Below, piece after piece: positions 21,700 through 32,770 of a DNA stretch of 64,000 nt. The stretch lies in contig MNTB01000030.1 of the NCBI GenBank assembly GCA_001916775.1, positions 120,901-184,900 on the forward strand, read 5' to 3'. Source of the DNA: Firmicutes bacterium CAG:321_26_22. GTDB taxonomy: Bacteria; Bacillota_I; Bacilli_A; RF39; UBA660. A program made the translations under genes and the position numbers. Numbering within the stretch: position 1 is the first letter of the stretch; every line of letters starts with the position of its first letter. The notes beneath the pieces are model-generated. The model was not told where the DNA came from and did no database searches. It was given only the letters and a program-made list of their open reading frames with translations.

Positions 21700-22227
21700 A
21701 TGAAATACAATATTCGTGGTGATAAAATGCTTATTACCGATGCAATAAAAGACTATACGGAAACTAAATTAGGAAGACTTGAAAAATATTTTAAGGACGA
21801 TGATATTACCGCTAATGTACTGGCTAAAGTAAGAGGTAATTCACAAATAGTGGAAGTTACTATTCCTACTAGTAAATTTATTCTTAGAAGTGAAGAAGAA
21901 AGTGATGATTTATATGCTGCTATTGACTTGGTAAGTGATAAATTAGAAAGACAAATCAGAAAGAATAAAACTAGATTAAACAGAAATGTTAAAGATAATA
22001 TTAAAGAATTTAACTTTGATTTTGATATAAAAGAGGAGGAAGAACCTAAAGAAAAAATTGTTAAAAGAAAAGATATTGAAATGAAACCTATGGATGAAGA
22101 AGAGGCCATTTTAGAAATGGAACTTCTTGGTCACTCATTCTTTGTATATAAAGATATGGATACTAATAAAACTTGTGTTCTTTATAAAAGAAAAGATGGA
22201 GACTATGGTTTAATTGAAACTAAGTAA
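21700..22227 (+). CDS. hpf: Ribosome hibernation promoting factor (long form)
   Basis: N-terminal S30AE domain (NIRGDKMLITDAIKDYTETKLGRLEKYF) and C-terminal dimerisation domain (KPMDEEEAILEMELLGHSFFVY). Confidence 0.9.
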   Translation: MKYNIRGDKMLITDAIKDYTETKLGRLEKYFKDDDITANVLAKVRGNSQIVEVTIPTSKFILRSEEESDDLYAAIDLVSDKLERQIRKNKTRLNRNVKDNIKEFNFDFDIKEEEEPKEKIVKRKDIEMKPMDEEEAILEMELLGHSFFVYKDMDTNKTCVLYKRKDGDYGLIETK

Positions 22228-22324: not shown

Positions 22325-23209
22325 TTAGTTAGTTATTAAATTATTTTCTTCATTAACCTGGTTTTGTAATAATTCTAATTCTTTAATATTTTTATTGTCT
22401 CTTAATACTTTCATTTGCCTTATTGCAGAATTATTAAGTCTTATTAATCTTTCACCTTGTGGAATATTTTCTTCAATTAATTCGGCATTTGTATTTTGTA
22501 GATTATTTAATATTACTAAATGGAGTAAATCAGTATAATCTCTTATATTTCCATTTTTTGCTAGTTCAGGATTTGCTTCTCTCCACTCTTTAGCAGTCAT
22601 ACCAAATAATGCAACATTTAAAACATCTGCTTCTTCAGCATAAATATGCTTTTTTTGTTCTTCTGTAAGAGTTGGAACAATATAATTTTTTACTGCATCA
22701 GTATGAACCATATAATTTAATTTAGATAAAATTCTATTCGCACTCCAATCTAATTTGTACTGATAGGCTTCATTAGTTTTTAGTCTCTCAAATTCAGTTA
22801 TTAAATATAATTTAAATTCCGGACTTAACCAACTTGCAAATTCAAAAGCAATATCAGGATGGGCAAATGTGCCAATACTATATCTTCCACCTTTTGAAAT
22901 TATTCCTATTGCATTAGTCCTTTTTATCCATTGTGTTGGAGACATTGCAAACGAATTTCTACCATACTCCGTTTTAATTTGGTCGAATTCGACCAAATTA
23001 AAATCTTGATTATGAATTTCTTCCCATAAACCAATATAATCAATGGTACTTATCCTTCTTAACCAATTTTTCACCGTAAAAGATGGATCACTAGAATTTT
23101 GATACTTTGCCAAATCAGTTAATGAAATATAATTAACATTTCCTACCCTTAATATTCCTATTTTATTTTCTTTAACAGTGATTTCTGTTCTAACTATGTC
23201 TCTTTTCAA
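22325..23209 (-). CDS. KilA-N domain protein
   Basis: ILRVGNVNYISLTDLAKY ... TFAHPDIAFEFASWLSPEFKLYL matches KilA-N. TTG start 6 nt after AGGAGGG. Confidence 0.8.
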   Translation of the reverse strand: MKRDIVRTEITVKENKIGILRVGNVNYISLTDLAKYQNSSDPSFTVKNWLRRISTIDYIGLWEEIHNQDFNLVEFDQIKTEYGRNSFAMSPTQWIKRTNAIGIISKGGRYSIGTFAHPDIAFEFASWLSPEFKLYLITEFERLKTNEAYQYKLDWSANRILSKLNYMVHTDAVKNYIVPTLTEEQKKHIYAEEADVLNVALFGMTAKEWREANPELAKNGNIRDYTDLLHLVILNNLQNTNAELIEENIPQGERLIRLNNSAIRQMKVLRDNKNIKELELLQNQVNEENNLITN

Positions 23210-23414: not shown

Positions 23415-23528
23415 CACCAAAGTGACTATAGGAACGGAGGTGAAACTTCAATAAAATAAAGGAAATATTAAATATTTACTAGTTTTTTTAGTTAAAATAT
23501 AGTAAAATATTATTTAGGAGATGATTTG

Positions 23529-26024
23529 ATGTTTAAAACACTTAAAAAATTATTTGATAATGAGTATAAAGAATTATATAGATTTAGTAAATTAGCAGAT
23601 CAAATAGATGCTCTTGATGAAGAAATGAGTAAATTATCTGATAAAAAACTTGCTAGTTATACTGATAAATTTAAGAAAAGATTAGAGGAGGGAGAAACTC
23701 TTGATGATATCTTAGTTGAGGCTTTTGCAGTTGCAAGAGAGGCTGCTTATAGATGTCTTGGAATGAAACCGTTCTACTGTCAATTACTTGGTGGCCTTGC
23801 TATTCATTATGGTAATATTGCAGAAATGAAAACAGGTGAAGGTAAAACACTTACTTGTGTACTTCCTGCTTATTTAAATGCTTTAACTGGAAAAGGTGTT
23901 CATATCGTTACAGTTAATGAATTTTTGTCTACTAGAGATTCTGAATGGATGGGGAGTATATTTAAGTTCTTAGGTCTTACTGTAGGTCTTAACTTAAGAG
24001 AACTTTCTTTTAAAGAAAAACAAGAAGCTTATAACTGTGATATTTTATATAGTACTAATAATGAACTTGGTTTTGATTACTTAAGAGATAACATGGTTGT
24101 AAAAAAAGAAAATAGAGTGCAAAGACCTCTTAACTATTGTATTGTCGATGAAGTTGACTCTATCTTAATAGATGAGGCTAGAACTCCTCTTATTATATCT
24201 GGCGGAGTTATGCAGTCTGCTAATCTATATATTGATGCTGATAGATATGTTAAAAGTTTAAAAGAAAATGAAGATTACATTATGGATGAAAAATCTAAGG
24301 CTGTTAGTTTAACTGACGAAGGCAGTAGAAAAGCTGAAGAACATTTTCATCTAGATAATTTATATGATATTAATAATACAGCTTTAGTACATCATATTAA
24401 TCAAGCACTTAAAGCAAATTATGCTATGAGTTTAGATGTTGACTACGTTGTACAAGATGGTGAAGTTGTTATCGTAGACCAATTTACTGGTAGACTTATG
24501 AAAGGTAGAGCCTTCTCTGATGGACTTCATCAGGCAATTGAAGCTAAGGAAGGTGTTAAGATTCAACAAGAAACTAAAACTCTTGCTACGATTACTTTCC
24601 AAAACTACTTTAGAATGTATAACAAGATTGCTGGTATGACAGGTACTGCGAAGACTGAAGAAGAGGAGTTTAGAAATATTTATAATATGTTTGTTATTCA
24701 AATTCCTACTAATAAACCAGTTATTAGGGAAGACGCTACTGACTTATTATATCCTGGTAAAGAAGGTAAATATAATGCTATTATTAAAGAAATAGAAAAT
24801 AGACATGCTACTGGTCAACCAGTACTTGTTGGTACTATTGCTATCGAAACTTCTGAACTACTTAGTAAAATGCTTACTAAAAAGAAGATTCCTCATGAAG
24901 TATTAAATGCTAAGAATCATGCTAGAGAGGCTGAAATTATTGCTCATGCTGGTGAAAAAGGTGCTGTTACTATTGCTACCAATATGGCTGGTCGTGGTAC
25001 CGATATTAAACTTGGTGAAGGTGTTAAAGAACTAGGTGGTTTATGTGTTATCGGTAGTGAAAGACATGAATCTAGAAGAATAGATAATCAGCTTAGAGGT
25101 AGAAGTGGTAGACAAGGAGATCCTGGTTTTACACAATTCTTTGTATCATTTGAAGATGACCTTCTTGTTAGATTCGGTTCTGATAGATATAAGGATATGC
25201 TTAAAAATCTAGGTTTTACCGGGGATATGGCTATTCAAAATAAGATGTTCTCTAAAACTGTTGAATCTGCTCAAAGAAAAGTTGAGGGTAATAACTTTGA
25301 TATAAGAAAACAACTTCTTAACTATGATGATGTTATGAATAATCAAAGAGAAATTATCTATGGTAAGAGAAATGAAATATTAGATAATGATTCTATTCAT
25401 GAAACAGTTCTTAATGGTTTTAAGGAATATATTAGTGATATTGTTAATTCACATTTAGTGGAAAGTAATAAACTAAAAGAAAATGATTATAGTGAAATAC
25501 TTGAGGCTGTAAATGAAAACTTACTTAGAAAATATAGAATTAACTTATCTGAAATTAATGGTAAACATCCTAGTGAAGTTATTGATTTGATATATGAAAA
25601 TGCTCTAAAGGATTATGAAGAAAAATTAGAAGATATTCCAGAAGAAGTTAGAGATGAGTTTGAAAAGGCTATTTCTCTTAGGGTTATTGATAATTACTGG
25701 ATGGAACATATTTCTACGATGAGTCACTTAAGAGATGGTATTGGTCTTAGAGGTTATGCTAATACTAGTCCTCTTCAGGCATATACAATGGAAGGATATC
25801 AATTATTTGATGAAATGATTGCTAAAATTAATAGGGATATTAGTATTTATCTATTAAAATCTGAAATTAGACAAAATATTGAAAGAAAACAAGTAGCAAA
25901 GACCGCTATTACAAATGATAGTAAAGATCATGCTAAGGTACAAAAGAAGAGTACTAAGGTTGGTAGAAATGACCCTTGTCCATGTGGCAGTGGTCGCAAA
26001 TATAAGCAATGTCACGGTAAATAA
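23529..26024 (+). CDS. secA: Preprotein translocase ATPase SecA
   Basis: MKTGEGKT Walker [33 protein letters not shown], and C-terminal SEC-C zinc motif [15 protein letters not shown]. Confidence 0.95.
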
Positions 26025-26107
26025 TCGCTCAAACCCTTATAAATAAAGGGATTGCGGGTTTTTCTATGATTCCACATTTTAGGTAATTTTTGGAGTGACA
26101 ACTGTCC

Positions 26108-26169
26108 TAGATACGTTTTAGATACGTTATAAAAATCTTGCAAAGCCTTATAAAATAAGGCTAAAACGC
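26108..26169 (+). repeat. TAGATACGTTT doublet followed by a hairpin related to the secA 3' flank
   Basis: tagatacgttt-tagatacgtt (26108-26128), then cttgcaaAGCCTTAtaaaaTAAGGCTaaaacgc (26137-26169). An inverted half-site aaaacgtatcta lies at 26200-26211. Confidence 0.75.
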
Positions 26170-26256
26170 ATATTCAAACTTTAATTTCAAATTACATACA
26201 AAACGTATCTAAAAAATAAAAGTTTAATGATATAATATAAATAGGAGTTGATAATT

Positions 26257-27354
26257 ATGCTAAAACCACAAAAATTGAATAAAGGAGATAAAGTTGCAAT
26301 AGTTAGTTTATCTAGAGGATTATTGGGAATGCCTTTTTGTAAACATGAGTTAGATATAGCAATTAAAAGATTAGAAGAATTTGGATTAATACCGGTTATA
26401 ATGCCAAATGCATTGAAAGATATGGATTATCTTCAAAACCATCCAGAAGCAAGGGCAAGTGATTTAAAACAGGCTTTTATGGATGATAGTATAAAAGGAA
26501 TTATTTGTGCCATTGGTGGAGATGATACATATAAAACAATTCCATACTTAATGGAAGATGAGGAATTTATAAATGCAGTTCAAAATTATCCGAAATTATT
26601 TACAGGTTTTTCTGATACAACAAACAACCACTTAATGTTAAATAAATTAGGACTCTCAACTTTCTACGGTCCTTGCTTATTAGTTGATCTAGCAGAATTA
26701 GATAAAGAGATGTTGCCATATACAAAACAATATTTTGAAAAGTTTTTTATGAATGAATCTAATTTTGAAATAGCATCAAGTCCAATATGGTATTTTGATA
26801 GAGAAAGCTATGGCACTGAAGAAGTTGGAAAACCAAGAAAATCTCAAAATGAGCAACATGGGTTTGAAGTTTTGAATGGTAAAGGAAAAATAACAGGAAA
26901 ATTATATGGTGGATGTCTAGATAGTTTATACGATATTTATACAAGTGAAAGATATGGAAATGAAAATGAAATATACACTAAATATAATATATTACCAACT
27001 TTAGATGAATGGAAAGAAAAAATACTATTTATAGAAACTTCTGAGGAAAGAATGCATCCAGATAAATTGGAACTAATATTGAACTTTTTTAAGAATAATA
27101 AAGTATTGGAAAGCGTAAGAGGTATTATTGTTGGTAAACCTATAGATGAAAAATATTATGAAGAGTATAAGCAAGTTTACAAAAAGGTTTTTGCAGATTT
27201 AGAAACGCCTATTTTGTATAATGTTAATTTTGGACATTCTGTTCCAAGATGTATAATACCATATGATGCTGAAGCAACTATAGATTTTGATAATAAAAGG
27301 ATAACTATTAACACTCCAATATTTGAAGAAACAACAATTACTAAAAAATTGTAA
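26257..27354 (+). CDS. S66-family LD-carboxypeptidase / MccF-like serine peptidase
   Basis: GDKVAIVS..., nucleophile motif FTGFSDTTN, NFGHSVP histidine motif. Extended -10 TGATATAAT at 26228-26236 and a GGAG RBS. Confidence 0.8.
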   Translation: MLKPQKLNKGDKVAIVSLSRGLLGMPFCKHELDIAIKRLEEFGLIPVIMPNALKDMDYLQNHPEARASDLKQAFMDDSIKGIICAIGGDDTYKTIPYLMEDEEFINAVQNYPKLFTGFSDTTNNHLMLNKLGLSTFYGPCLLVDLAELDKEMLPYTKQYFEKFFMNESNFEIASSPIWYFDRESYGTEEVGKPRKSQNEQHGFEVLNGKGKITGKLYGGCLDSLYDIYTSERYGNENEIYTKYNILPTLDEWKEKILFIETSEERMHPDKLELILNFFKNNKVLESVRGIIVGKPIDEKYYEEYKQVYKKVFADLETPILYNVNFGHSVPRCIIPYDAEATIDFDNKRITINTPIFEETTITKKL

Positions 27355-27376
27355 AAAATTCAACAATGGCAAATTT

Positions 27377-27400
27377 TAGATACGTTTTTAGATACGTTTT
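27377..27400 (+). repeat. TAGATACGTTTT doublet (second copy)
   Basis: tagatacgttttTAGATACGTTTT, a direct repeat of 26108-26128. Confidence 0.8.
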
Positions 27401-27547
27401 GCTAGGTTTGCCGAGTGCTACGGAGTGCTCCCAAGTGCAACCAAGTGCCGAATTAACGAGCCAAGTGCTCCCAAACGCTCCCAAAAACCCCAATACAAAA
27501 AGCCATGTGGCAGTGGTAAAAAATATAAACAATGTTGTGGTAAATAA
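27392..27547 (+). pseudogene. Start-less open frame ending in a secA-like SEC-C tail (remnant 1)
   Basis: ...YKKPCGSGKKYKQCCGK*. The 15 nt ccatgtggcagtggt are identical to the secA 3' end. There is no ATG or RBS, and the frame opens right after a TAG inside the TAGATAC doublet. Confidence 0.7.
27411..27490 (+). repeat. Eight phased 10-nt GC-rich units (consensus CCAAGTGCTC)
   Basis: ccgagtgcta cggagtgctc ccaagtgcaa ccaagtgccg aattaacgag ccaagtgctc ccaaacgctc ccaaaaaccc. The period is exactly 10 nt, which is not a multiple of 3. Confidence 0.8.
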
Positions 27548-27593
27548 ACTTGCAAACCTGCATAAAATAAGGGAAAGCGTGAGCTTTTTCTTT

Positions 27594-27654
27594 GCTAAAA
27601 AATTGCGAGTTTATATGTTCTGAACCACTTTAGATACCTTTTAGATACCTTTTT
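27594..27654 (+). repeat. Direct repeat, left copy: gctaaaaaattgcga + TAGATACCTTTT doublet
   Basis: gctaaaaaattgcgaG...tagataccttttagataccttttt. Its partner is at 29718-29773. Confidence 0.8.
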
Positions 27655-27717
27655 CCGGTATTTTTAAATAGAAAAGAATTTATTATGTTATAATATATAT
27701 GAGAGGATAGTGATTTT

Positions 27718-29532
27718 ATGTTTAATTTAGAAGATGACGATACTTTAACAATCGAATTATTAAATAAAATTATTGAAACTGATGAGCAGTATAAAGATAA
27801 TGAGTATTTAAAATACTTGATTAACAACGAGATAATAAGTGGAATAAGTTATGGAAACTTTAAAAAGATATGTGAATTTATAGGTAAAGAGGATATATAT
27901 AATGTGTACGATTATAATTTTCTCAATTTAATATGTAAAAATATGGTTCTATTATATTCTGATGTAGATGAGGAAGATATAGATGATCCAGAAGAGGTAC
28001 AACATATTGATAAAATTAAAAAATCGGTAGATTCATTTTATGAGATAATTGACTCAGGGAATTTAAATGCATTTGATAAATTAATAAATCTTCTTCTTGA
28101 AAATAATAAAAATAAAAAAGATAAAATAAAATTAATGCTTGATGTTGCTTCAAATTTTAAAAAGTATTCACAATTAGTTGATGAGATAATAAAAAAAGGA
28201 CAATTAGATTTTAGAGAAAAATATGCTGTGCTTGGATTATTAAAATTTGATACAGAGTATTATGATGATCAATATTATAAAAGTGATTATGAAGAGTACG
28301 AAAGAGATTTTTATCCTGATGATGAAGTAATAAATAATATAACTACATTAGAAGATTTAAAAAAATATACTGATGCTTGTTATGTAGTACAAATTTCTAG
28401 AATTAAGGAATTAAATGAGGATGATTATTATGGTGATGCAAATTATATGATAAAGAATGAAATCACTAAAGCATTAGCAAACATAAAGTATTTTGGAAAT
28501 GAATCACTAGATACTATTGGATTTGAAACATCTTCATTAAAAGAGCTTAGAAATAGTGTTACAGATGAAAGTATAAAAGAAGAACTATCTAAATATATTT
28601 TATTTATGAGTTTAATAGATTCCATTTTAAAAATAGATGATTTAAGAAAACTTAAAGTAATTGCAAGTAGAATATTAAATTTTAAAAAGAGTAATGATAC
28701 AATTTATACAATTTATAATTATACAGAGAATATGGCAAAAAGAATTAAAGAAATATATGCTCATGAAATAAAAGAAAAATTAATTGATTTTACAAATTTA
28801 GAAAATGGAAATAATCAATTATACTCAAGAACAAATTCTAAATTTACTGCTGATAGTAAAATGTTATATGATGAGGATATTACTGGAAGAAAAGTTGATT
28901 ATATAGAATTATCAGGAATAGATTATGTTTCACTTGTTCATGTATTAAACGCTTATGGTGAAGGTGGAACTCTAAAAGATTTCAAAACTCCAAGAATAAT
29001 TGGTAAGGAATATATTTGTTTATCTGCAATTGATGAAACAAAAGAAAAAATAGCAAAGTCAAAACAAGACGATGAAGAACATGTATGCTTATTATTTAGC
29101 AATATTGCACCAGATCAATTAATATCTGAATCTTTTGAGGATTTATATTCAGACGGAGATTTAAATAGCCTATCAATAACTTTTGGAGAAAGAGAAAATT
29201 TTAGACCGATAAAAAAGCAAATTCAATTAAATGAGGGTAGCCATACAGAGTTTGTTTTATACAGAGATTCTTCAAATGGTAATTCAATTTATCCAAGCGG
29301 TATACTTATTCAAAATGAAATGCCAACACAAGCAGAAATTAATGCAGCTGCATATTTAAATGTGCCACTTGTTTTTATAAATCATGAAAAATATAAAAAT
29401 AAGTCTAATAGTCTTGAATCTAAAAGTGATAATACTGAACCTTATAAACCAACATCTGAAGATTATAGATTATTTAGAGAAAGTCTAATGGAATTACGAG
29501 ATTCTATAAATGGAAAGGGTAAAGGTAGATAG
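27718..29532 (+). CDS. Hypothetical protein, 604 aa, acidic, no recognisable domain
   Basis: GAGAGGA RBS and a long uninterrupted ORF. I found no P-loop, nuclease or HTH motif by eye. Confidence 0.7.
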   Translation: MFNLEDDDTLTIELLNKIIETDEQYKDNEYLKYLINNEIISGISYGNFKKICEFIGKEDIYNVYDYNFLNLICKNMVLLYSDVDEEDIDDPEEVQHIDKIKKSVDSFYEIIDSGNLNAFDKLINLLLENNKNKKDKIKLMLDVASNFKKYSQLVDEIIKKGQLDFREKYAVLGLLKFDTEYYDDQYYKSDYEEYERDFYPDDEVINNITTLEDLKKYTDACYVVQISRIKELNEDDYYGDANYMIKNEITKALANIKYFGNESLDTIGFETSSLKELRNSVTDESIKEELSKYILFMSLIDSILKIDDLRKLKVIASRILNFKKSNDTIYTIYNYTENMAKRIKEIYAHEIKEKLIDFTNLENGNNQLYSRTNSKFTADSKMLYDEDITGRKVDYIELSGIDYVSLVHVLNAYGEGGTLKDFKTPRIIGKEYICLSAIDETKEKIAKSKQDDEEHVCLLFSNIAPDQLISESFEDLYSDGDLNSLSITFGERENFRPIKKQIQLNEGSHTEFVLYRDSSNGNSIYPSGILIQNEMPTQAEINAAAYLNVPLVFINHEKYKNKSNSLESKSDNTEPYKPTSEDYRLFRESLMELRDSINGKGKGR

Positions 29533-29713
29533 TGTGAATAATAAAGATAATAGTCAAGATGATTTTATATTAGCGATTAATAATCTAATAAAAGAAACTA
29601 ATTTAAATGAATTCGAAGAATTAAAAGATTCAATAGATAATATTAATTCGGAAGCAAATAAAATTATTAAGAATAGTGAAGAAAAGAATCAAGAAAAATT
29701 TGATAATAATTAG
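29510..29713 (+). CDS. Small acidic hypothetical protein (about 60-67 aa)
   Basis: ORF overlapping the end of the 604-aa gene. The start is uncertain (ATG at 29510 or GTG at 29534). Confidence 0.4.
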   Translation: MERVKVDSVNNKDNSQDDFILAINNLIKETNLNEFEELKDSIDNINSEANKIIKNSEEKNQEKFDNN

Positions 29714-29717
29714 TTTT

Positions 29718-29773
29718 GCTAAAAAATTGCGAAAAACGATTAAAAAAGTATTTTAGATACCTTTTTAGATACC
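29718..29773 (+). repeat. Direct repeat, right copy: gctaaaaaattgcga + TAGATACC doublet
   Basis: gctaaaaaattgcgaA...tagatacctttttagatacc. Confidence 0.8.
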
Positions 29774-29923
29774 TCGGGAGTAAATTCACGGGTGCTGTTG
29801 GAAGCTACCAAGTGCATTCAAGAGCAAAAAAGGACCACAAAATGCTCTCAAGAACTCCCAAAAACCTCAAATTACAAGCCTTGTGGGTCTGGTAAGAAAT
29901 ATAAGAACTGCTGTGGAAAGTAA
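29744..29923 (+). pseudogene. Start-less open frame ending in a SEC-C tail (remnant 2)
   Basis: ...ATKCIQEQKRTTKCSQELPKTSNYKPCGSGKKYKNCCGK*. Homologous to remnant 1 (ATKC...Y(K)KPCGSGKKYK.CCGK). No start codon. Confidence 0.65.
29787..29866 (+). repeat. Second array of eight phased 10-nt units
   Basis: cacgggtgct gttggaagct accaagtgca ttcaagagca aaaaaggacc acaaaatgct ctcaagaact cccaaaaacc. Same architecture as 27411-27490. Confidence 0.7.
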
Positions 29924-30047: not shown

Positions 30048-31064
30048 ATGAATAATAAAGTAATTGGAAATGAAAAAAATATAATATTTTATAATGATGG
30101 AGAAGGAAATACAAAAATTGAAGTTCTTCTGCAAGATGAAGATGTTTGGTTAAATACAGAGGCATTAGCAATACTTTTTAATGTCAAAAGACCCGCTATT
30201 ACTAAACATATAAATAATATATACAACGATGGCGAACTTAGTGAAAATAGCACATGTTCCAAAATGGAACATATGGGTAATGATGGTAAACAGAGTTATA
30301 ATACAAAGTACTATAATTTAGATATGATTATTTCTATTGGATTTAGAGTTAATTCTAAGAAAGCAATTAAGTTTAGAACTTGGGCTAATAAAATAATTAA
30401 AGATTATATAATTCAAGGCTTTGCTCTAAATGATGATAGATTTATGAAAGTAAGAAAATCTGACCAAGAATATTTTAATAGATTACTAGAGAGAATTAAA
30501 TTAATTAGAACAAGTGAAAGAATGTTTTATCAAAAAATCACTGATATATTTTCAGAGTGTTCTATTGATTATGATAGGAATAGTGAGACTGCTTCTACAT
30601 TTTATAAAATTATTCAAAATAAATTTCACTATGCTATAACTGGAAAAACAGCAGCGGAAATTGTATATGATAGAGCTGATGCAAAAAAAAAGAATATGGG
30701 ACTTACTACTTGGGAAAAATCTCCTGATGGCAAGATACTTAAATCAGATATAATTATTGCTAAAAACTATTTAGCTGAAAAGGAAATTAAAGGATTAAAT
30801 AACTTAGTAAACTTATTTCTAGATATTGCAGAAAATAATGCAGAAAGAAATATTCCAATGTATATGAATGATTGGAAAAATGAAGTTGAAAATGCTTTGA
30901 AAGTTTTTCATTATGAAGCACTAGAAGGAAAAGAAAATATTTCACATAAGCAAGCAATTCAAAAAGCAACAGGTGAATATGAAAAATATAGAGTTATTCA
31001 AGATAAGAATTATATCTCTGACTTTGATAAGTTAGTTAAAGAGACTGAACAATTAGAAAAATAA
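30048..31064 (+). CDS. RhuM-family (virulence protein RhuM-like) protein
   Basis: IIFYNDGEGNTKIEVLLQDEDVWLNTEALAILFNVKRPAITKHINNIYNDGEL and YYNLDMIISIGFRVNSKKAIKFRTWA are characteristic of RhuM. GGAGGGGG RBS. Confidence 0.8.
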   Translation: MNNKVIGNEKNIIFYNDGEGNTKIEVLLQDEDVWLNTEALAILFNVKRPAITKHINNIYNDGELSENSTCSKMEHMGNDGKQSYNTKYYNLDMIISIGFRVNSKKAIKFRTWANKIIKDYIIQGFALNDDRFMKVRKSDQEYFNRLLERIKLIRTSERMFYQKITDIFSECSIDYDRNSETASTFYKIIQNKFHYAITGKTAAEIVYDRADAKKKNMGLTTWEKSPDGKILKSDIIIAKNYLAEKEIKGLNNLVNLFLDIAENNAERNIPMYMNDWKNEVENALKVFHYEALEGKENISHKQAIQKATGEYEKYRVIQDKNYISDFDKLVKETEQLEK

Positions 31065-31150: not shown

Positions 31151-31690
31151 ATGACTAGTCAAGCAAACCTAGATAAGTTTAATGAATTTTATAAAGAAAC
31201 TTATTCTAATATTCTTAGATATATTATTATTAAATGTCATAATATTAATGATGTAAATGATATTATTCAAGATGTTTATTTAGAATTATGGAAGATTATG
31301 AATAAGAAAAATATTGATGATACTAATATTAATAGTTATTTAATTGGAATTGCTATTAATAAAATTAAGAAGTATTATTCTTTAGTTATGAGAATAAGAG
31401 ATATTTCTTTATTTGATAAAAATAATAATGACTTAGAAATTATAGATAAAATAGATTCTTCATTTGATATTGAAAGTTTACTTATTAAAGATGAAGAATG
31501 GAAGTCAATATGGAATTTTATTAAAAAGAAAAAGAATCAAGATGTTCCAAAAGTATTTTATTTATATTACAAAGAAGAAATGACTATTAAAGAAATTAGC
31601 AAATTACTTAATACTAAAGAATCTTATATTAAAAATCTTATTTATAGAACATTAAATGAATTATGCTTATATTTTAAGGAATGTGATTAA
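31151..31690 (+). CDS. ECF-type sigma-70 family sigma factor
   Basis: Region 2 (DVNDIIQDVYLELWK) and region 4 HTH (MTIKEISKLLNTKESYIKNLIYRTLNEL). 179 aa. Confidence 0.8.
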   Translation: MTSQANLDKFNEFYKETYSNILRYIIIKCHNINDVNDIIQDVYLELWKIMNKKNIDDTNINSYLIGIAINKIKKYYSLVMRIRDISLFDKNNNDLEIIDKIDSSFDIESLLIKDEEWKSIWNFIKKKKNQDVPKVFYLYYKEEMTIKEISKLLNTKESYIKNLIYRTLNELCLYFKECD

Positions 31691-31691
31691 A

Positions 31692-32384
31692 ATGAATAAT
31701 GAAGATAAATTAAATAAAGTTATAACAAATGATTTTGATATAAATAATAATTATACTTCTATTAGAAAGAAAATGGAAAGAGGTAATAAAATGAATAAAA
31801 TATTTAAATATAGTCTAGTACCTATGGCTATAGTTATAACTATGACTGGTGTATTTCTTTTAAATAAAAAGAGTATTACAAATAATGTATTAGATAGTAA
31901 TGTTAAAAATAATGATGTTATTATTTTTAATAATATTGATAACAATTTTGATAATGCTAAGTTAGATATTGATGGAAGAAGTGAAGATATAACTACTGAT
32001 GATTTATATAAAATATATCCATTACTTAAAGATATTGTAGTACCAAATGACTATAATATAAATGGAATAATTAAATGCTATTTATTCAATGAGAATACTG
32101 GTAAATATGATAAATTATATGGATATAATATTATTTATAGTGGTGGTAATAATAAATATATAGATATATTTATTTTAATAGATACTACTAAGAGACTTAG
32201 ATGTTTTAGTATTGATACTGATGAAATGAAAAATTCTATAGTTAATAATACTAACATTAAAATTATGGGTGGAAATAAAAATTATTATGCTATATTTAGT
32301 TATAATAATATTAATTTTGATATTGAAACTGCTGGAATATCGGAGGAAGAGGTTATTCAGTTATTAAAATCTATTATTAAATAA
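31692..32384 (+). CDS. Putative single-pass anti-sigma-like membrane protein
   Basis: ATG 1 nt after the sigma stop. A short cytoplasmic N-terminus, one TM helix (IFKYSLVPMAIVITMTGVFLL) and an extracytoplasmic domain. The call is by position only. Confidence 0.45.
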   Translation: MNNEDKLNKVITNDFDINNNYTSIRKKMERGNKMNKIFKYSLVPMAIVITMTGVFLLNKKSITNNVLDSNVKNNDVIIFNNIDNNFDNAKLDIDGRSEDITTDDLYKIYPLLKDIVVPNDYNINGIIKCYLFNENTGKYDKLYGYNIIYSGGNNKYIDIFILIDTTKRLRCFSIDTDEMKNSIVNNTNIKIMGGNKNYYAIFSYNNINFDIETAGISEEEVIQLLKSIIK

Positions 32385-32387
32385 GTT

Positions 32388-32419
32388 ATCTATCAACAGA
32401 TATTGTTGATAGATTTTTT
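32388..32419 (+). terminator. PAL-D palindrome acting as an intrinsic terminator
   Basis: atctatcaaca-gatat-tgttgatagat followed by TTTTT. Confidence 0.75.
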
Positions 32420-32471
32420 ATTGAATATTTATATTTTATATGTTATTATTTTGTTATAGGAGGAAATGTAT

Positions 32472-32732
32472 ATGAACGATAAGAATTTACCTTATGAATA
32501 TAAACCTATATCTATGTGGGGATATTTTGGATATGAAATTTTGTTTTCTATTCCTTTTATAGGTTTTATTCTACTACTAGTATTTTCGTTTGGTGGTACT
32601 AAGAATATTAACCTTAGAAATTTTGCTAGATCATATTTTTGTTTTTCAATTATTGTCATTATCTTTATCGCTATTATATTTTTATTATATGGTAGTAGTT
32701 ATGTTAATAACGACTTTGGAACTACTATTTAG
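32472..32732 (+). CDS. Small hypothetical membrane protein (86 aa)
   Basis: AGGAGGA RBS 7 nt before the ATG at 32472. Two TM helices. Confidence 0.5.
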   Translation: MNDKNLPYEYKPISMWGYFGYEILFSIPFIGFILLLVFSFGGTKNINLRNFARSYFCFSIIVIIFIAIIFLLYGSSYVNNDFGTTI

Positions 32733-32739
32733 AATTTAG

Positions 32740-32770
32740 TCTATCAATAGGTATTGTTGATAGATTTTTT
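32740..32770 (+). terminator. Second, near-identical PAL-D terminator
   Basis: tctatcaata-ggtat-tgttgataga followed by TTTTTT. Nearly identical to 32388-32419. Confidence 0.75.

Follow-up and report, generated by a model that had tools for sequence, protein, structure and literature searches.

A candidate conflict gene pair carried as a cassette in an integron-like secA-tail array of low-GC gut bacteria

A pair of genes of no recognisable family lies between a peptidase gene and a RhuM gene in the window (the whole stretch of 64,000 nucleotides analysed here, from Firmicutes bacterium CAG:321_26_22) and raises two questions, namely what delimits the unit to which the pair belongs and what its products may do. 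The first-pass annotation had described an open reading frame of 604 aa (27718-29532) overlapped by a small one of 67 aa (29510-29713), and both are present as described; the neighbours it named are likewise confirmed as a Peptidase_S66 gene of the MccF/LdcA-like type and a RhuM gene. The pair was further said to be bracketed by direct repeats of roughly 60 nt. These repeats are real and above chance: GCTAAAAAATTGCGA occurs exactly at 27594-27608 and 29718-29732, as part of 18 nt (TTTGCTAAAAAATTGCGA) shared identically from 27591 and 29715, and is followed after 22 and 21 nt, respectively, by TAGATACCTTT(T)TAGATACC at 27631-27653 and 29754-29773. A search for TAGATACSTTTT with at most one mismatch gave nine matches against 2.1 expected, a number reached in 0/100 shuffles, and eight of the nine fall within 26.1-29.8 kb; the repeat 20-mer gave two matches against 0.04 expected. 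The repeats do not bracket the cassette, however, but are internal to it, its borders being the copies of the secA tail at 27503 and 29879, where identity to the related contig L006 breaks. Nor is the repeat system limited to the two copies originally noted, since it includes additional TAGATAC pairs (26108-26130 and 27377-27400), one inverted TAGATAC-type copy (26200-26211) and three secA 3' ends. We consider it probable, taking the explanation as a whole, that 27503-29878 is one cassette of a site-specific array at the 3' end of secA and that the gene pair it carries is a conflict module.

The secA gene in the window is intact and its product ends in the SEC-C zinc-finger motif (Pfam). Downstream of it lies an array in which every unit opens with 45 nt that repeat the final 15 codons of secA (hereafter the core), and three cores, starting at 25980, 27503 and 29879, are found in the window (Table 1). 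As in lambda-type elements, direct repeats of the target 3' end thus flank the units and the secA reading frame is restored. A contig of the same species (L086) matches the window at ~100% identity as far as ~25973, beyond which the two diverge across the core (RKYKVCCGK), and the core on the functional secA would have been brought in by the first (S66) cassette. The final segment, from RhuM to ~32367, has no distal core, and part of the local variation departs from the array model; no RNA element was detected with Rfam over 25.9-33 kb. The proposal of a cassette hotspot was therefore correct in that a discrete mobile cassette is present, whereas the structured site-specific array downstream of secA had gone unrecognised.

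Table 1. Features of the secA locus and its array in the window.
Feature	Position	Strand	Evidence or remark
secA, 832 aa, array target gene	23526..26024	+	Pfam SecA_DEAD, P-loop_SecA, SecA_SW, SecA_PP_bind, SEC-C
Core copy 1, last 15 codons of functional secA	25980..26024	+	L086 comparison
TAGATACG x2, X' arm of first (S66) cassette	26108..26130	+	Motif search; 84 nt past secA stop
Cargo of cassette 1, LD-carboxypeptidase/MccF-like Peptidase_S66	26248..27354	+	Pfam
P-arm of cassette 1, TAGATACG x2 (27377-27400) and ~100-nt spacer	27377..27502	+	Spacer with 10-nt periodicity
Mobile unit, 2376 nt	27503..29878	+	Core, hairpin, P' arm, promoter, large gene, small gene, P arm, periodic spacer
Core copy 2, pseudo secA tail (..KKPCGSGKKYKQCCGK*) without start codon	27503..27547	+	Left end of the 604-aa cassette; high L006 identity starts here
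Left repeat of first-pass annotation, P'-arm-like, TTTGCTAAAAAATTGCGA-N22-TAGATACC x2	27591..27653	+	Kept in 90-site consensus
Putative extended -10 promoter, TGTTATAAT	27686..27694	+	Read from sequence; stretch 97.5% identical to L006
RBS GAGAGGA ahead of large gene	27702-27708	+	
Large gene, 604 aa, ATG start	27718..29532	+	Variable helical N-terminal part; conserved C-terminal alpha/beta domain, residues ~356-560
Small gene, 59 aa from GTG 29534 (ORF open from ATG 29510, 67 aa)	29534..29713	+	Acidic, pI 4.3; conserved motif IKETNLNEFEEL
Right repeat of first-pass annotation, P-arm-like, TTTGCTAAAAAATTGCGA-N21-TAGATACC x2	29715..29773	+	
Periodic spacer, X to next core, 10-nt repeats of CAAGTGC-like unit	29774..29878	+	Lag-10 autocorrelation, 62 sites
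Core copy 3, pseudo secA tail (..YKPCGSGKKYKNCCGK*)	29879..29923	+	Opens next, RhuM-containing segment
RhuM family gene, downstream neighbour	30048..31064	+	PADLOC candidate family PDC-S05

The limits of the unit are set by comparison between genomes. Its sequence is 95.9% identical to a copy in L006, whose secA is just 77% identical to that of the window, and identity breaks at ~27490-27503 and ~29880-29885, that is, at the cores; the spacing of the repeats (2377 nt) is consistent with the unit length. A second, independent cassette is 94.3% identical from core to core between L086 and L112 and has different neighbours in the two, so that genome-to-genome breakpoints coincide with the core in three pairs (window/L006, window/L086 and L086/L112). 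The positions of these breakpoints rule out crossover at the TAGATAC pairs instead of the core. Taken together, the comparisons support the description of the unit as a discrete, apparently horizontally mobile two-gene cassette within a hotspot. The cassette may also be self-promoted, for its large gene is preceded by the putative promoter listed in Table 1 and the S66 gene by a similar extended -10-like sequence (TGATATAAT); a consensus scan for promoters and terminators was uninformative in DNA of 26% GC (41 sites against 39 expected). Within the unit an arm (GCTAAAAAATTGCGA...TAGATAC x2) lies ~50-80 nt downstream of the core and the same arm recurs ~126 nt upstream of the next core, from which it is separated by a spacer with 10-bp helical periodicity. 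By analogy, the repeats of the first-pass annotation, which sit inside the unit and flank the core, resemble the arm-type sites of a lambda-style attP.

The same architecture is found in at least 75 metagenome loci, the hosts being low-GC Bacilli-type gut bacteria: among at least 130 loci recovered with the TAGATAC motif, 75 carry secA tails and 60 have the upstream arm (X) followed by a tail. At least 92 pseudo-tails and at least 22 real secA ends are represented, and in many loci the real ends, as in the window, are trailed by the X' feature (TAGATACG x2). The distance from X to the core is tightly constrained (median 126 nt, IQR 123-127) and the intervening spacer is periodic at lag-10/20/30 (autocorrelation, 62 sites). 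At least 63 cassettes were delimited, all of 0.26-3.5 kb except two of 6.7 kb, and they usually hold one to three cargo genes without mobilisation genes; 102/105 cassette ORFs are co-oriented with secA, and the densest array has five cores in 6.5 kb (L047). The cargo comprises at least 77 protein clusters or families, including type II R-M, GNATs, HD, Ltp and methyltransferases, and non-defence cargo such as GNATs, a tRNA synthetase and Q_salvage is also common.

No integrase is encoded anywhere in the window. Lambda-type tyrosine integrases (Phage_int_SAM_3 plus Phage_integrase) follow a core at a distance of ~260 nt in L006, L044, L057 and L037, and occur at other array positions elsewhere; in these related arrays they lie within the array and are co-oriented with it. 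The copy in L006 is frameshifted, which, with the lack of an integrase in the window, makes current mobility of this particular cassette no more than putative; neither an excised circle nor an empty site was seen. Under the model that we favour, a circular cassette would carry an attP made up of arm, phased spacer, core, hairpin and arm, and an integrase supplied in trans would catalyse recombination, at CCATGTGG, between the core of the cassette and the secA 3' end. Insertion would restore secA with the cassette's own tail and displace the old tail downstream, so that pseudo-tails would accumulate with successive insertions. A geometry that is fixed across ~60-90 independent sites (X 126 nt upstream, X' 50-80 nt downstream and a helically phased spacer), integrases that recur ~260 nt past cores, a near-total orientation bias and breakpoints at the 5' edge of the core are difficult to reconcile with an alternative that sees in the repeats no more than ordinary intergenic elements and traces the array to homologous recombination between copies of the secA tail, with no dedicated site-specific recombinase. 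We regard this origin as improbable, although the window has no integrase, the distal end of the island lacks a core and some homologous exchange is conceivable between cores of 45 nt.

The large protein is, as had been noted, acidic (pI 4.7) and devoid of recognisable motifs. It belongs to a family of at least 123 representatives (clusters at 50% identity), mostly of 700-1650 aa, in which the conserved region is C-terminal and retains H408, N411, G429, C434, S436, F460, D475, N483, E511, R516 and P526. Neither this protein nor its small partner nor distant homologues matched a family in Pfam, PADLOC, PHROGs or NCBIfam, and hence the homology to a housekeeping family that would have removed the locus from consideration was not found in these collections. 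At E <= 1, PADLOC-DB 2.0 gave no match for the 604-aa protein, the small protein or the homologues P0066 and P0067, and identified just the neighbouring RhuM (PDC-S05), while a sequence-profile search of the PDB returned only noise (ribosomal protein S2, E 0.97; LT-IIB, E 2.7). Homologues were absent from the phage and plasmid collections searched, and a scan of a genome collection with alignment A1 recovered four species only, all of them 'uncultured Bacilli bacterium' MAGs. The C-terminal domain was poorly modelled in the full-length AF2 prediction (pLDDT <50 for residues 401-526), with which Foldseek found nothing; remodelled with 34 diverse sequences it reached a pLDDT of 92.8. The structural comparison proposed in the first-pass annotation thus yields a confident domain with no structural neighbour in the PDB or BFVD (Foldseek; best E 0.9 and TM <= 0.19 among the hits listed). 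Independent fusions of homologues to HD and to Metallophos_2 phosphoesterase domains suggest that the substrate may contain phosphate.

Translationally coupled to the large gene is a second one, whose product is an acidic helical partner of ~45-65 aa. A small ORF is present as claimed, although its start at 29510 is doubtful: homologues begin 2 nt after the stop of the large gene, and the start is therefore most likely the GTG at 29534, giving 59 aa. Both genes of this two-gene operon are under purifying selection (dN/dS <0.5), with values of 0.09-0.22 for the C-terminal and 0.27-0.46 for the N-terminal part of the large gene and 0.18-0.37 for the small gene. The expectation that the two form a conserved pair is borne out in most lineages examined, the small partner being kept in five of eight and lying upstream rather than downstream of the large gene in one of these (P0077); partners were found in L001, L011, L016, L017, L018, L013, L019, L154 and L152. 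Homologues P0066 and P0067 have none, and P0067 is alone among housekeeping genes. The small protein has no match to HTH, RHH or AbrB domains. Weak NCBIfam matches (SunS, E 0.24; Nif11 leader, E 5e-4, below cutoff) raised the idea of a RiPP precursor and its enzyme, which was rejected on the grounds that the C-termini of the small proteins are hydrophilic, poor in Cys, Ser and Thr and unconserved, and that no transporter or protease is present.

Our best guess is that the products form an effector-plus-regulator pair of a conflict system, either defence or toxin-antitoxin-like. Such a module would be of the toxin-antitoxin or of the defence/abortive-infection type. Enzymatic activity would reside in the conserved domain as effector, with H408, C434/S436, D475, E511 and R516 as candidate catalytic residues; sensing or targeting would fall to the variable N-terminus, and inhibition or regulation to the small acidic protein. 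Homologues are located in variable or defence-type regions, as had been predicted: one locus has Shedu SduA_C, Mob_Pre and a serine recombinase as neighbours, another has SocA_Panacea, and YhcG, PDDEXK_2, HipA_C and HIRAN are found beside others. The earlier suggestion of an accessory or defence system fits this genomic context, and it is from the context that we infer a role in defence; as much of the array cargo is not defence-related, the context counts little toward the conflict reading. The pair might alternatively have a non-conflict accessory function, for example as a metabolite or envelope enzyme with a small chaperone or regulatory subunit, and travel as ordinary array cargo, most families of which are not defence genes. 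The solitary position of P0067 and the absence of a PADLOC match are compatible with this alternative, to which we give serious weight while considering it unlikely, because the joining of a variable N-terminus to a conserved C-terminal domain, and the close partnership, flexible in gene order, with a tiny acidic protein, are what conflict systems typically show, and because several homologues have Shedu, Panacea, HipA or nuclease genes as neighbours and are located in mobile elements.

It is also conceivable that the pair serves to stabilise the array or in inter-bacterial competition rather than in phage defence, as an addiction (toxin-antitoxin) module or a polymorphic-toxin/immunity pair. 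Toxin-antitoxin cassettes are common in chromosomal integron arrays, and the small gene comes directly after the large one, to which its translation is coupled, with the order inverted in P0077. A polymorphic toxin would be expected to carry a secretion or trafficking domain, of which none was found (no LXG, Rhs or signal peptide by Pfam), and here the C-terminal domain is the conserved rather than the variable part; a length of 600-1650 aa is atypical for a TA toxin, neither the 604-aa protein nor its 59-aa partner matches a family above curated cutoffs, and the partner has no DNA-binding domain. We therefore judge this assignment to be rather unlikely. A local motif that includes E511 (YNEYVxYR) resembles YNEYIVY of PARP1 and prompted the hypothesis of a very divergent H-Y-E ADP-ribosyltransferase (PARP/diphtheria-toxin-like) in the C-terminal domain, with H408, Y432 and E511, whose spacing we take, as a lead only, to resemble that in PARP and DT; the weak match to the LT-IIB A chain (E = 2.7) would point the same way. 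This hypothesis was rejected by hhalign, which aligned just 15 columns with 4% probability. Against the Pfam models for PARP and ART, with a threshold as loose as E <= 5, 0/34 family members gave a match, and the Foldseek hits listed for the pLDDT-93 model include neither kind of structure; we consider the hypothesis highly improbable. The pair resembles PADLOC-type two-gene defence or TA modules, made up of a large effector and a small regulator, in being a compact, translationally coupled operon that combines a variable with a conserved domain and occupies mobile or variable regions, where Shedu, Panacea, R-M and RhuM are among the adjacent genes. Unlike the catalogued modules, the present pair has no PADLOC, Pfam, PHROG or NCBIfam match and its conserved domain has no PDB or BFVD neighbour.

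The secA arrays share with integrons a tandem arrangement of small (mostly 0.7-3.5 kb), mostly single-gene and co-oriented cassettes with very diverse cargo, including defence and GNAT genes, and would further resemble them in using a tyrosine recombinase and in admitting new cassettes at one fixed site. To our knowledge, classical integrons are not known in low-GC gut Bacilli-type bacteria. In contrast to the attC hairpins of integrons, the junctions here consist of direct repeats of coding sequence together with arm-like repeats, and a search for attC-type sites (R''-L''/L'-R') at the junctions revealed no conserved inverted-repeat structure and weak folding. Here an essential gene provides, at its 3' end, the recombination site and is restored by each cassette, and the cassettes carry their own promoter-like sequence, whereas in integrons the Pc promoter drives promoterless cassettes. 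IntI lies beside attI at the head of the array and is usually divergent, whereas the integrase of the secA arrays is lambda/Tn916-like, co-oriented, internal to the array and often absent.

Tandem accretion at gene 3' ends has been described for IMEs, CIMEs and ICEs of Firmicutes (PMC5704250) and for the tycheposons of Prochlorococcus, which are tandem integrative elements (bioRxiv 10.1101/2020.12.28.424599). These elements have in common with the secA arrays a replacement 3' end brought by the element, direct repeats of the target flanking the units, and integrase-less derivatives in tandem with integrase-bearing ones; in them a conserved gene is targeted at its 3' end by a tyrosine integrase, as is probable for the secA arrays too. 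The secA-array units are far smaller and more numerous, and they differ further in having secA as target and an attP-like region with a conserved, helically phased spacer. Full-text literature searches gave no report of secA-targeted islands or cassette arrays, and the integron-like secA-tail array of low-GC gut bacteria is apparently so far undescribed. We propose tentatively, as a possibility that we hold with less than even confidence, that the locus combines an undescribed integron-analogous system, with a lambda-type integrase, a secA core and a zinc-finger tail rewritten at each insertion, and a new conflict system whose effector fold has no solved counterpart.

If the array model is correct, uncultured gut Firmicutes would possess a compact gene-capture platform with a role like that of integrons in Proteobacteria and a different recombination logic, based on a coding-sequence core, arm sites, a phased spacer and self-promoted cassettes, and the C-terminal zinc finger of an essential gene would be serially replaced by mobile DNA. 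The 45-nt core and the TAGATAC arms provide a sequence handle with which accessory, resistance and defence cargo can be harvested from metagenomes, and the cargo family described here, with an enzyme-like domain that is confidently modelled and has no PDB or BFVD neighbour, is a concrete target for functional discovery.

Both open reading frames proposed in the first-pass annotation (604 aa and 67 aa) were confirmed in the sequence, as were the direct repeats around them. The motif GCTAAAAAATTGCGA occurs exactly in two copies in the 64-kb window, the identity between these copies is longer than was described (18 nt, TTTGCTAAAAAATTGCGA), and a tandem TAGATACC pair lies 22 or 21 nt downstream of each. 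The repeats are above chance level: TAGATACSTTTT with at most one mismatch is found nine times in the window compared with 2.1 expected, none of 100 shuffles reaches nine, and eight of the nine matches are clustered inside 26.1-29.8 kb. The neighbours are also those claimed, with a Peptidase_S66 (MccF/LdcA-like) gene (S66) on one side and a RhuM gene on the other. The repeats do not, however, bracket the cassette: identity breakpoints place both of them inside a mobile unit, the borders of which are copies of the secA tail.

Features of the secA-anchored island (window coordinates)
Feature	Position	Remark
Ribosome hibernation factor gene	21700-22227	
KilA-N domain protein	22325-23209 (-)	294 aa
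secA	23526-26024	C-terminal SEC-C zinc-finger motif
S66 cassette, left arm	25980-26218	
TAGATAC pair (X')	26108-26130	after secA tail
Extra hairpin region	26131-26215	GCCTTATAAAATAAGGC
Inverted TAGATACG	26200-26211	
S66 cassette, right arm	27337-27546	
TAGATAC pair (X)	27377-27400	before pseudo-tail 1
Spacer	27401-27502	periodic
Pseudo-tail 1	end 27547	...KKPCGSGKKYKQCCGK*, copy of secA last 15 codons
GCTAAAAAATTGCGA, copy 1	27594	
TAGATAC pair (X')	27631-27653	after pseudo-tail 1
Large gene	27718-29532	604 aa
Small gene	29510-29713	67 aa as first described
GCTAAAAAATTGCGA, copy 2	29718	
TAGATAC pair (X)	29754-29773	before pseudo-tail 2
Spacer	29774-29878	periodic
Pseudo-tail 2	end 29923	...YKPCGSGKKYKNCCGK*, copy of secA last 15 codons
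Last segment	29924 to ~32367	
ECF-type sigma factor	31151-31690	
242-aa ORF	31656-32384	
Hairpin	32390-32412	CTATCAACAGATATTGTTGATAG
Membrane-like ORF	32466-32732	88 aa
Hairpin	32741-32763	CTATCAATAGGTATTGTTGATAG

The last 15 codons of secA (45 nt, here termed the core) are found two more times downstream of the gene, as pseudo-tails without a start codon. Each is preceded at constant distance by a TAGATAC pair (X), separated from it by a spacer of about 100 nt composed of 10-nt repeats. The real secA tail and the first pseudo-tail are followed by a hairpin and a further TAGATAC pair (X'), which the third tail lacks. The order is secA-core, hairpin-X', S66 gene, X-spacer-core, hairpin-[GCTAAA..]-X', large and small genes, [GCTAAA..]-X-spacer-core and then RhuM. 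The arms of the S66 cassette, the left of which contains an extra hairpin and an inverted repeat copy, recur at 84-90% identity in five comparison loci (L035, L047, L050, L126 and L129) with no S66-gene match between them, and it appears that cargo is swapped between arms that are themselves conserved. A KilA-N gene next to the array on its upstream side, located between the ribosome hibernation factor gene and secA, may be another inserted or phage-derived gene.

In five gut metagenome contigs (L006-L010) the two genes lie behind a secA that shares only 77.0% identity with that of the window, yet window positions 27387-29922 are matched at 95.9% identity. In a 40-nt sliding comparison of the window with L006, identity reaches at least 95% at about 27490-27503, 27503 being the first base of core copy 2, and drops sharply at about 29880-29885, within the first bases of core copy 3. 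Because identity starts and stops at cores, we delimit the mobile unit as 27503-29878 (2376 nt), in agreement with the repeat spacing of 2377 nt. The flanks differ, being S66 and RhuM in the window and two GNAT genes and a 6.7-kb integrase-bearing element in L006. A contig of the same species as the window (L086, 98.3% identity over secA) matches it almost perfectly as far as ~25973 but departs from it across the core. The strains accordingly encode different tails of the essential SecA protein (RKYKQCHGK versus RKYKVCCGK) and different first cassettes; the zinc-finger tail of SecA appears to be supplied by the most recently inserted cassette. L112 also has the first cassette of L086 (94.3% identity over essentially the whole core-to-core length), preceded there by a different element. 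Since the three genome comparisons agree, the crossover is placed at CCATGTGG on the 5' edge of the core, or immediately before it, and each cassette is predicted to bring its own core. In L046 (oriented) a 729-bp cassette with cores at 229 and 958 lies between duplications of the secA 3' end that are longer and include KVEKIGRNEPCPCGSG, and the duplicated target can therefore exceed 45 nt in some lineages.

This cassette system at the secA tail is widespread and structured. Scans of metagenomes and viral contigs for TAGATACSTTTTTAGATAC gave at least 130 loci, at least 75 of which contain SEC-C tails and at least 60 X followed by a tail. Among the loci listed, X precedes the core by a median of 126 nt (IQR 123-127) and X' follows it after about 50-80 nt; in the consensus of 90 distinct sites conservation is limited to X, the 45-nt core, the hairpin and X'. 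The spacer is unconserved in sequence but strongly periodic at 10-10.5 nt, in 62 sites (L022-L151) as in the window; self-match in the 62 sites is 0.417, 0.396 and 0.343 at lags of 10, 20 and 30, and 0.24-0.25 at lags of 5, 15 and 25 (shuffled mean 0.29). Such periodicity suggests helical phasing, for example an intrinsic bend or binding to one face. Core-to-core intervals (70 in the loci listed) span 0.26-3.5 kb with a median of about 1.5 kb; two further intervals of 6.7 kb represent the integrase element in L006 and its near-duplicate contig L007, and L047 holds five cores within 6.5 kb. In 63 cassettes of the loci listed, 102 of 105 ORFs are co-oriented with secA and 36 cassettes contain a single gene. 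Cassette proteins form at least 77 clusters and include GNAT acetyltransferases, HD proteins, methyltransferases, S66, LOG, Q_salvage, a CfrBI-type restriction enzyme with DNA methylases, type IIG R-M, Ltp lipoprotein and a class I (Trp/Tyr-type) tRNA synthetase. Two IMG/VR contigs classed as viral (L145 and L149) carry X-spacer-core, to which L149 adds an integrase fragment and a genuine secA end; either they are host DNA wrongly classed, or they point to transfer in phage particles.

The L006 tyrosine integrase (Phage_int_SAM_3 and Phage_integrase) has homologues in at least ten other loci (33-53% identity), and several integrase genes begin about 260 nt after a core in the same orientation; none is present in the 64-kb window. 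The L006 gene (10433-11703) is frameshifted, being split into ORFs of 297 and 126 aa at an A-run (..GATAAAAAAGAATATGG..); either the gene is a pseudogene, or the A-run is a slippery site. We thus observe core-bounded units, fixed arm geometry, a phased spacer, orientation bias, associated integrases and swapped SecA tails, and consider it very probable that these loci are arrays of integrated cassettes. An excised cassette would be a circle whose attP comprises GCTAAAAAATTGCGA-X, the phased spacer, the core, the hairpin and GCTAAAAAATTGCGA-X', the TAGATAC pairs serving as arm-type sites for a lambda/Tn916-like integrase. Integration would occur into the secA 3' end or any pseudo-tail, secA being restored with the incoming tail, and cassettes without an integrase, including this one, would be mobilised in trans. 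Plain homologous recombination between tails could also generate an array, but the conserved geometry and the breakpoint positions argue against it. The cassette array fits the last segment (RhuM, ECF-type sigma factor and 242-aa ORF) poorly. This segment is variable, a different small cassette replacing it in L075 (same species) with identity resuming at ~32367, and its exchange is unexplained by core recombination since neither a distal secA-tail core nor X' was found within it. At the distal island edge two near-identical hairpins, each followed by a T-run, enclose a membrane-like ORF.

The 604-aa protein is acidic (pI 4.7), as the first-pass annotation held, and is without a match in Pfam, PADLOC, PHROGs and NCBIfam. 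Close homologues (55-100% identity) are few, and their only sources are gut metagenomes and MAGs labelled 'uncultured Bacilli bacterium'. An exhaustive profile search revealed a wider family of 123 cluster representatives (56 at E ≤ 1e-30), mostly of 700-1650 aa, in which the homologous part is C-terminal and some members have N-terminal DUF4116 repeats. The conserved core covers query residues ~390-560, with H408, N411, G429, C434, S436, F460, D475, N483, E511, R516, P526, A544 and P550 near-invariant; dN/dS is 0.09-0.22 in the C-terminal domain and 0.27-0.46 in the N-terminal part. The distant members P0138 (residues 1200-1319) and P0166 (616-736) each have a phosphoesterase domain, HD and Metallophos_2 respectively, on the C-terminal side of the conserved domain; this hints weakly that the substrate is a nucleotide or nucleic acid. 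With 10 sequences as input AF2 failed to resolve the C-terminal domain, but an alignment of 34 diverse domain sequences yielded an alpha/beta domain (pLDDT 92.8, pTM 0.82). Among the matches listed, Foldseek found no neighbour of this model in PDB (best E 0.92, TM ≤ 0.19) or BFVD (best E 0.76), and the cargo represents a new protein family with a conserved domain that is structurally isolated relative to these databases.

Homologues of the small gene begin 2 nt after the large-gene stop, so the window copy most likely starts at GTG 29534 (59 aa, pI 4.3). The pair is conserved: a small gene with motif IKETNLNEFEEL (dN/dS 0.18-0.37) accompanies every homologue of at least 55% identity whose locus was examined. 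Similar polar, acidic, helical ORFs of 53-61 aa lie downstream of the distant members P0070, P0071 and P0073, and at P0077 the small ORF is upstream, overlapping the large-gene start; none was found at P0066 and P0067. The proposed pairing holds in most lineages examined, and several homologues lie in defence-type regions. Distant members occur beside a Shedu SduA_C gene with Mob_Pre and a serine recombinase, a SocA_Panacea gene, an island with YhcG, PDDEXK_2, HipA_C and HIRAN, a tRNA gene and, in one case, plain housekeeping genes.

Homology gives no biochemical function for the pair. The likeliest interpretation, tentative and somewhat short of an even chance, is that of a conflict module (defence/abortive-infection or toxin-antitoxin type). 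It is suggested by the joining of a variable N-terminus to a conserved, polar-residue-rich C-terminal domain, by the tiny partner that accompanies the large gene in flexible order, by carriage on mobile cassettes and in defence-type islands, and by occasional fusion to phosphoesterase domains. In such a conflict module the conserved domain would act as enzymatic effector, with the variable N-terminus for sensing or targeting and the small acidic protein as inhibitor or regulator. Alternatively, the pair may be a benign accessory enzyme or a pure addiction or competition module. The C-terminal domain could also be a divergent ART, as its PARP-like motif YNEYVxYR might suggest, but the likeness is limited to this motif, with no domain-level match (hhalign 4% probability over 15 columns).

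The array resembles integrons in function but lacks their defining features, namely attC hairpins and an IntI/attI/Pc platform, whereas it shares with lambda-type 3'-end integration the repeats of the target 3' end around each unit, a restored target ORF and breakpoints at the core. Mechanistically it is similar to the Firmicutes IMEs and CIMEs (PMC5704250) and to tycheposons (bioRxiv 10.1101/2020.12.28.424599), in which islands targeted to gene 3' ends by an integrase accumulate in tandem. We found no description of a secA-targeted cassette array in the full text of open-access papers, although an earlier description elsewhere is possible. The gene pair and repeats of the first-pass annotation are real, and the finding is more interesting than was first stated, though partly for another reason: what the repeats bring to light is a structured system of cassettes, widespread at secA tails.
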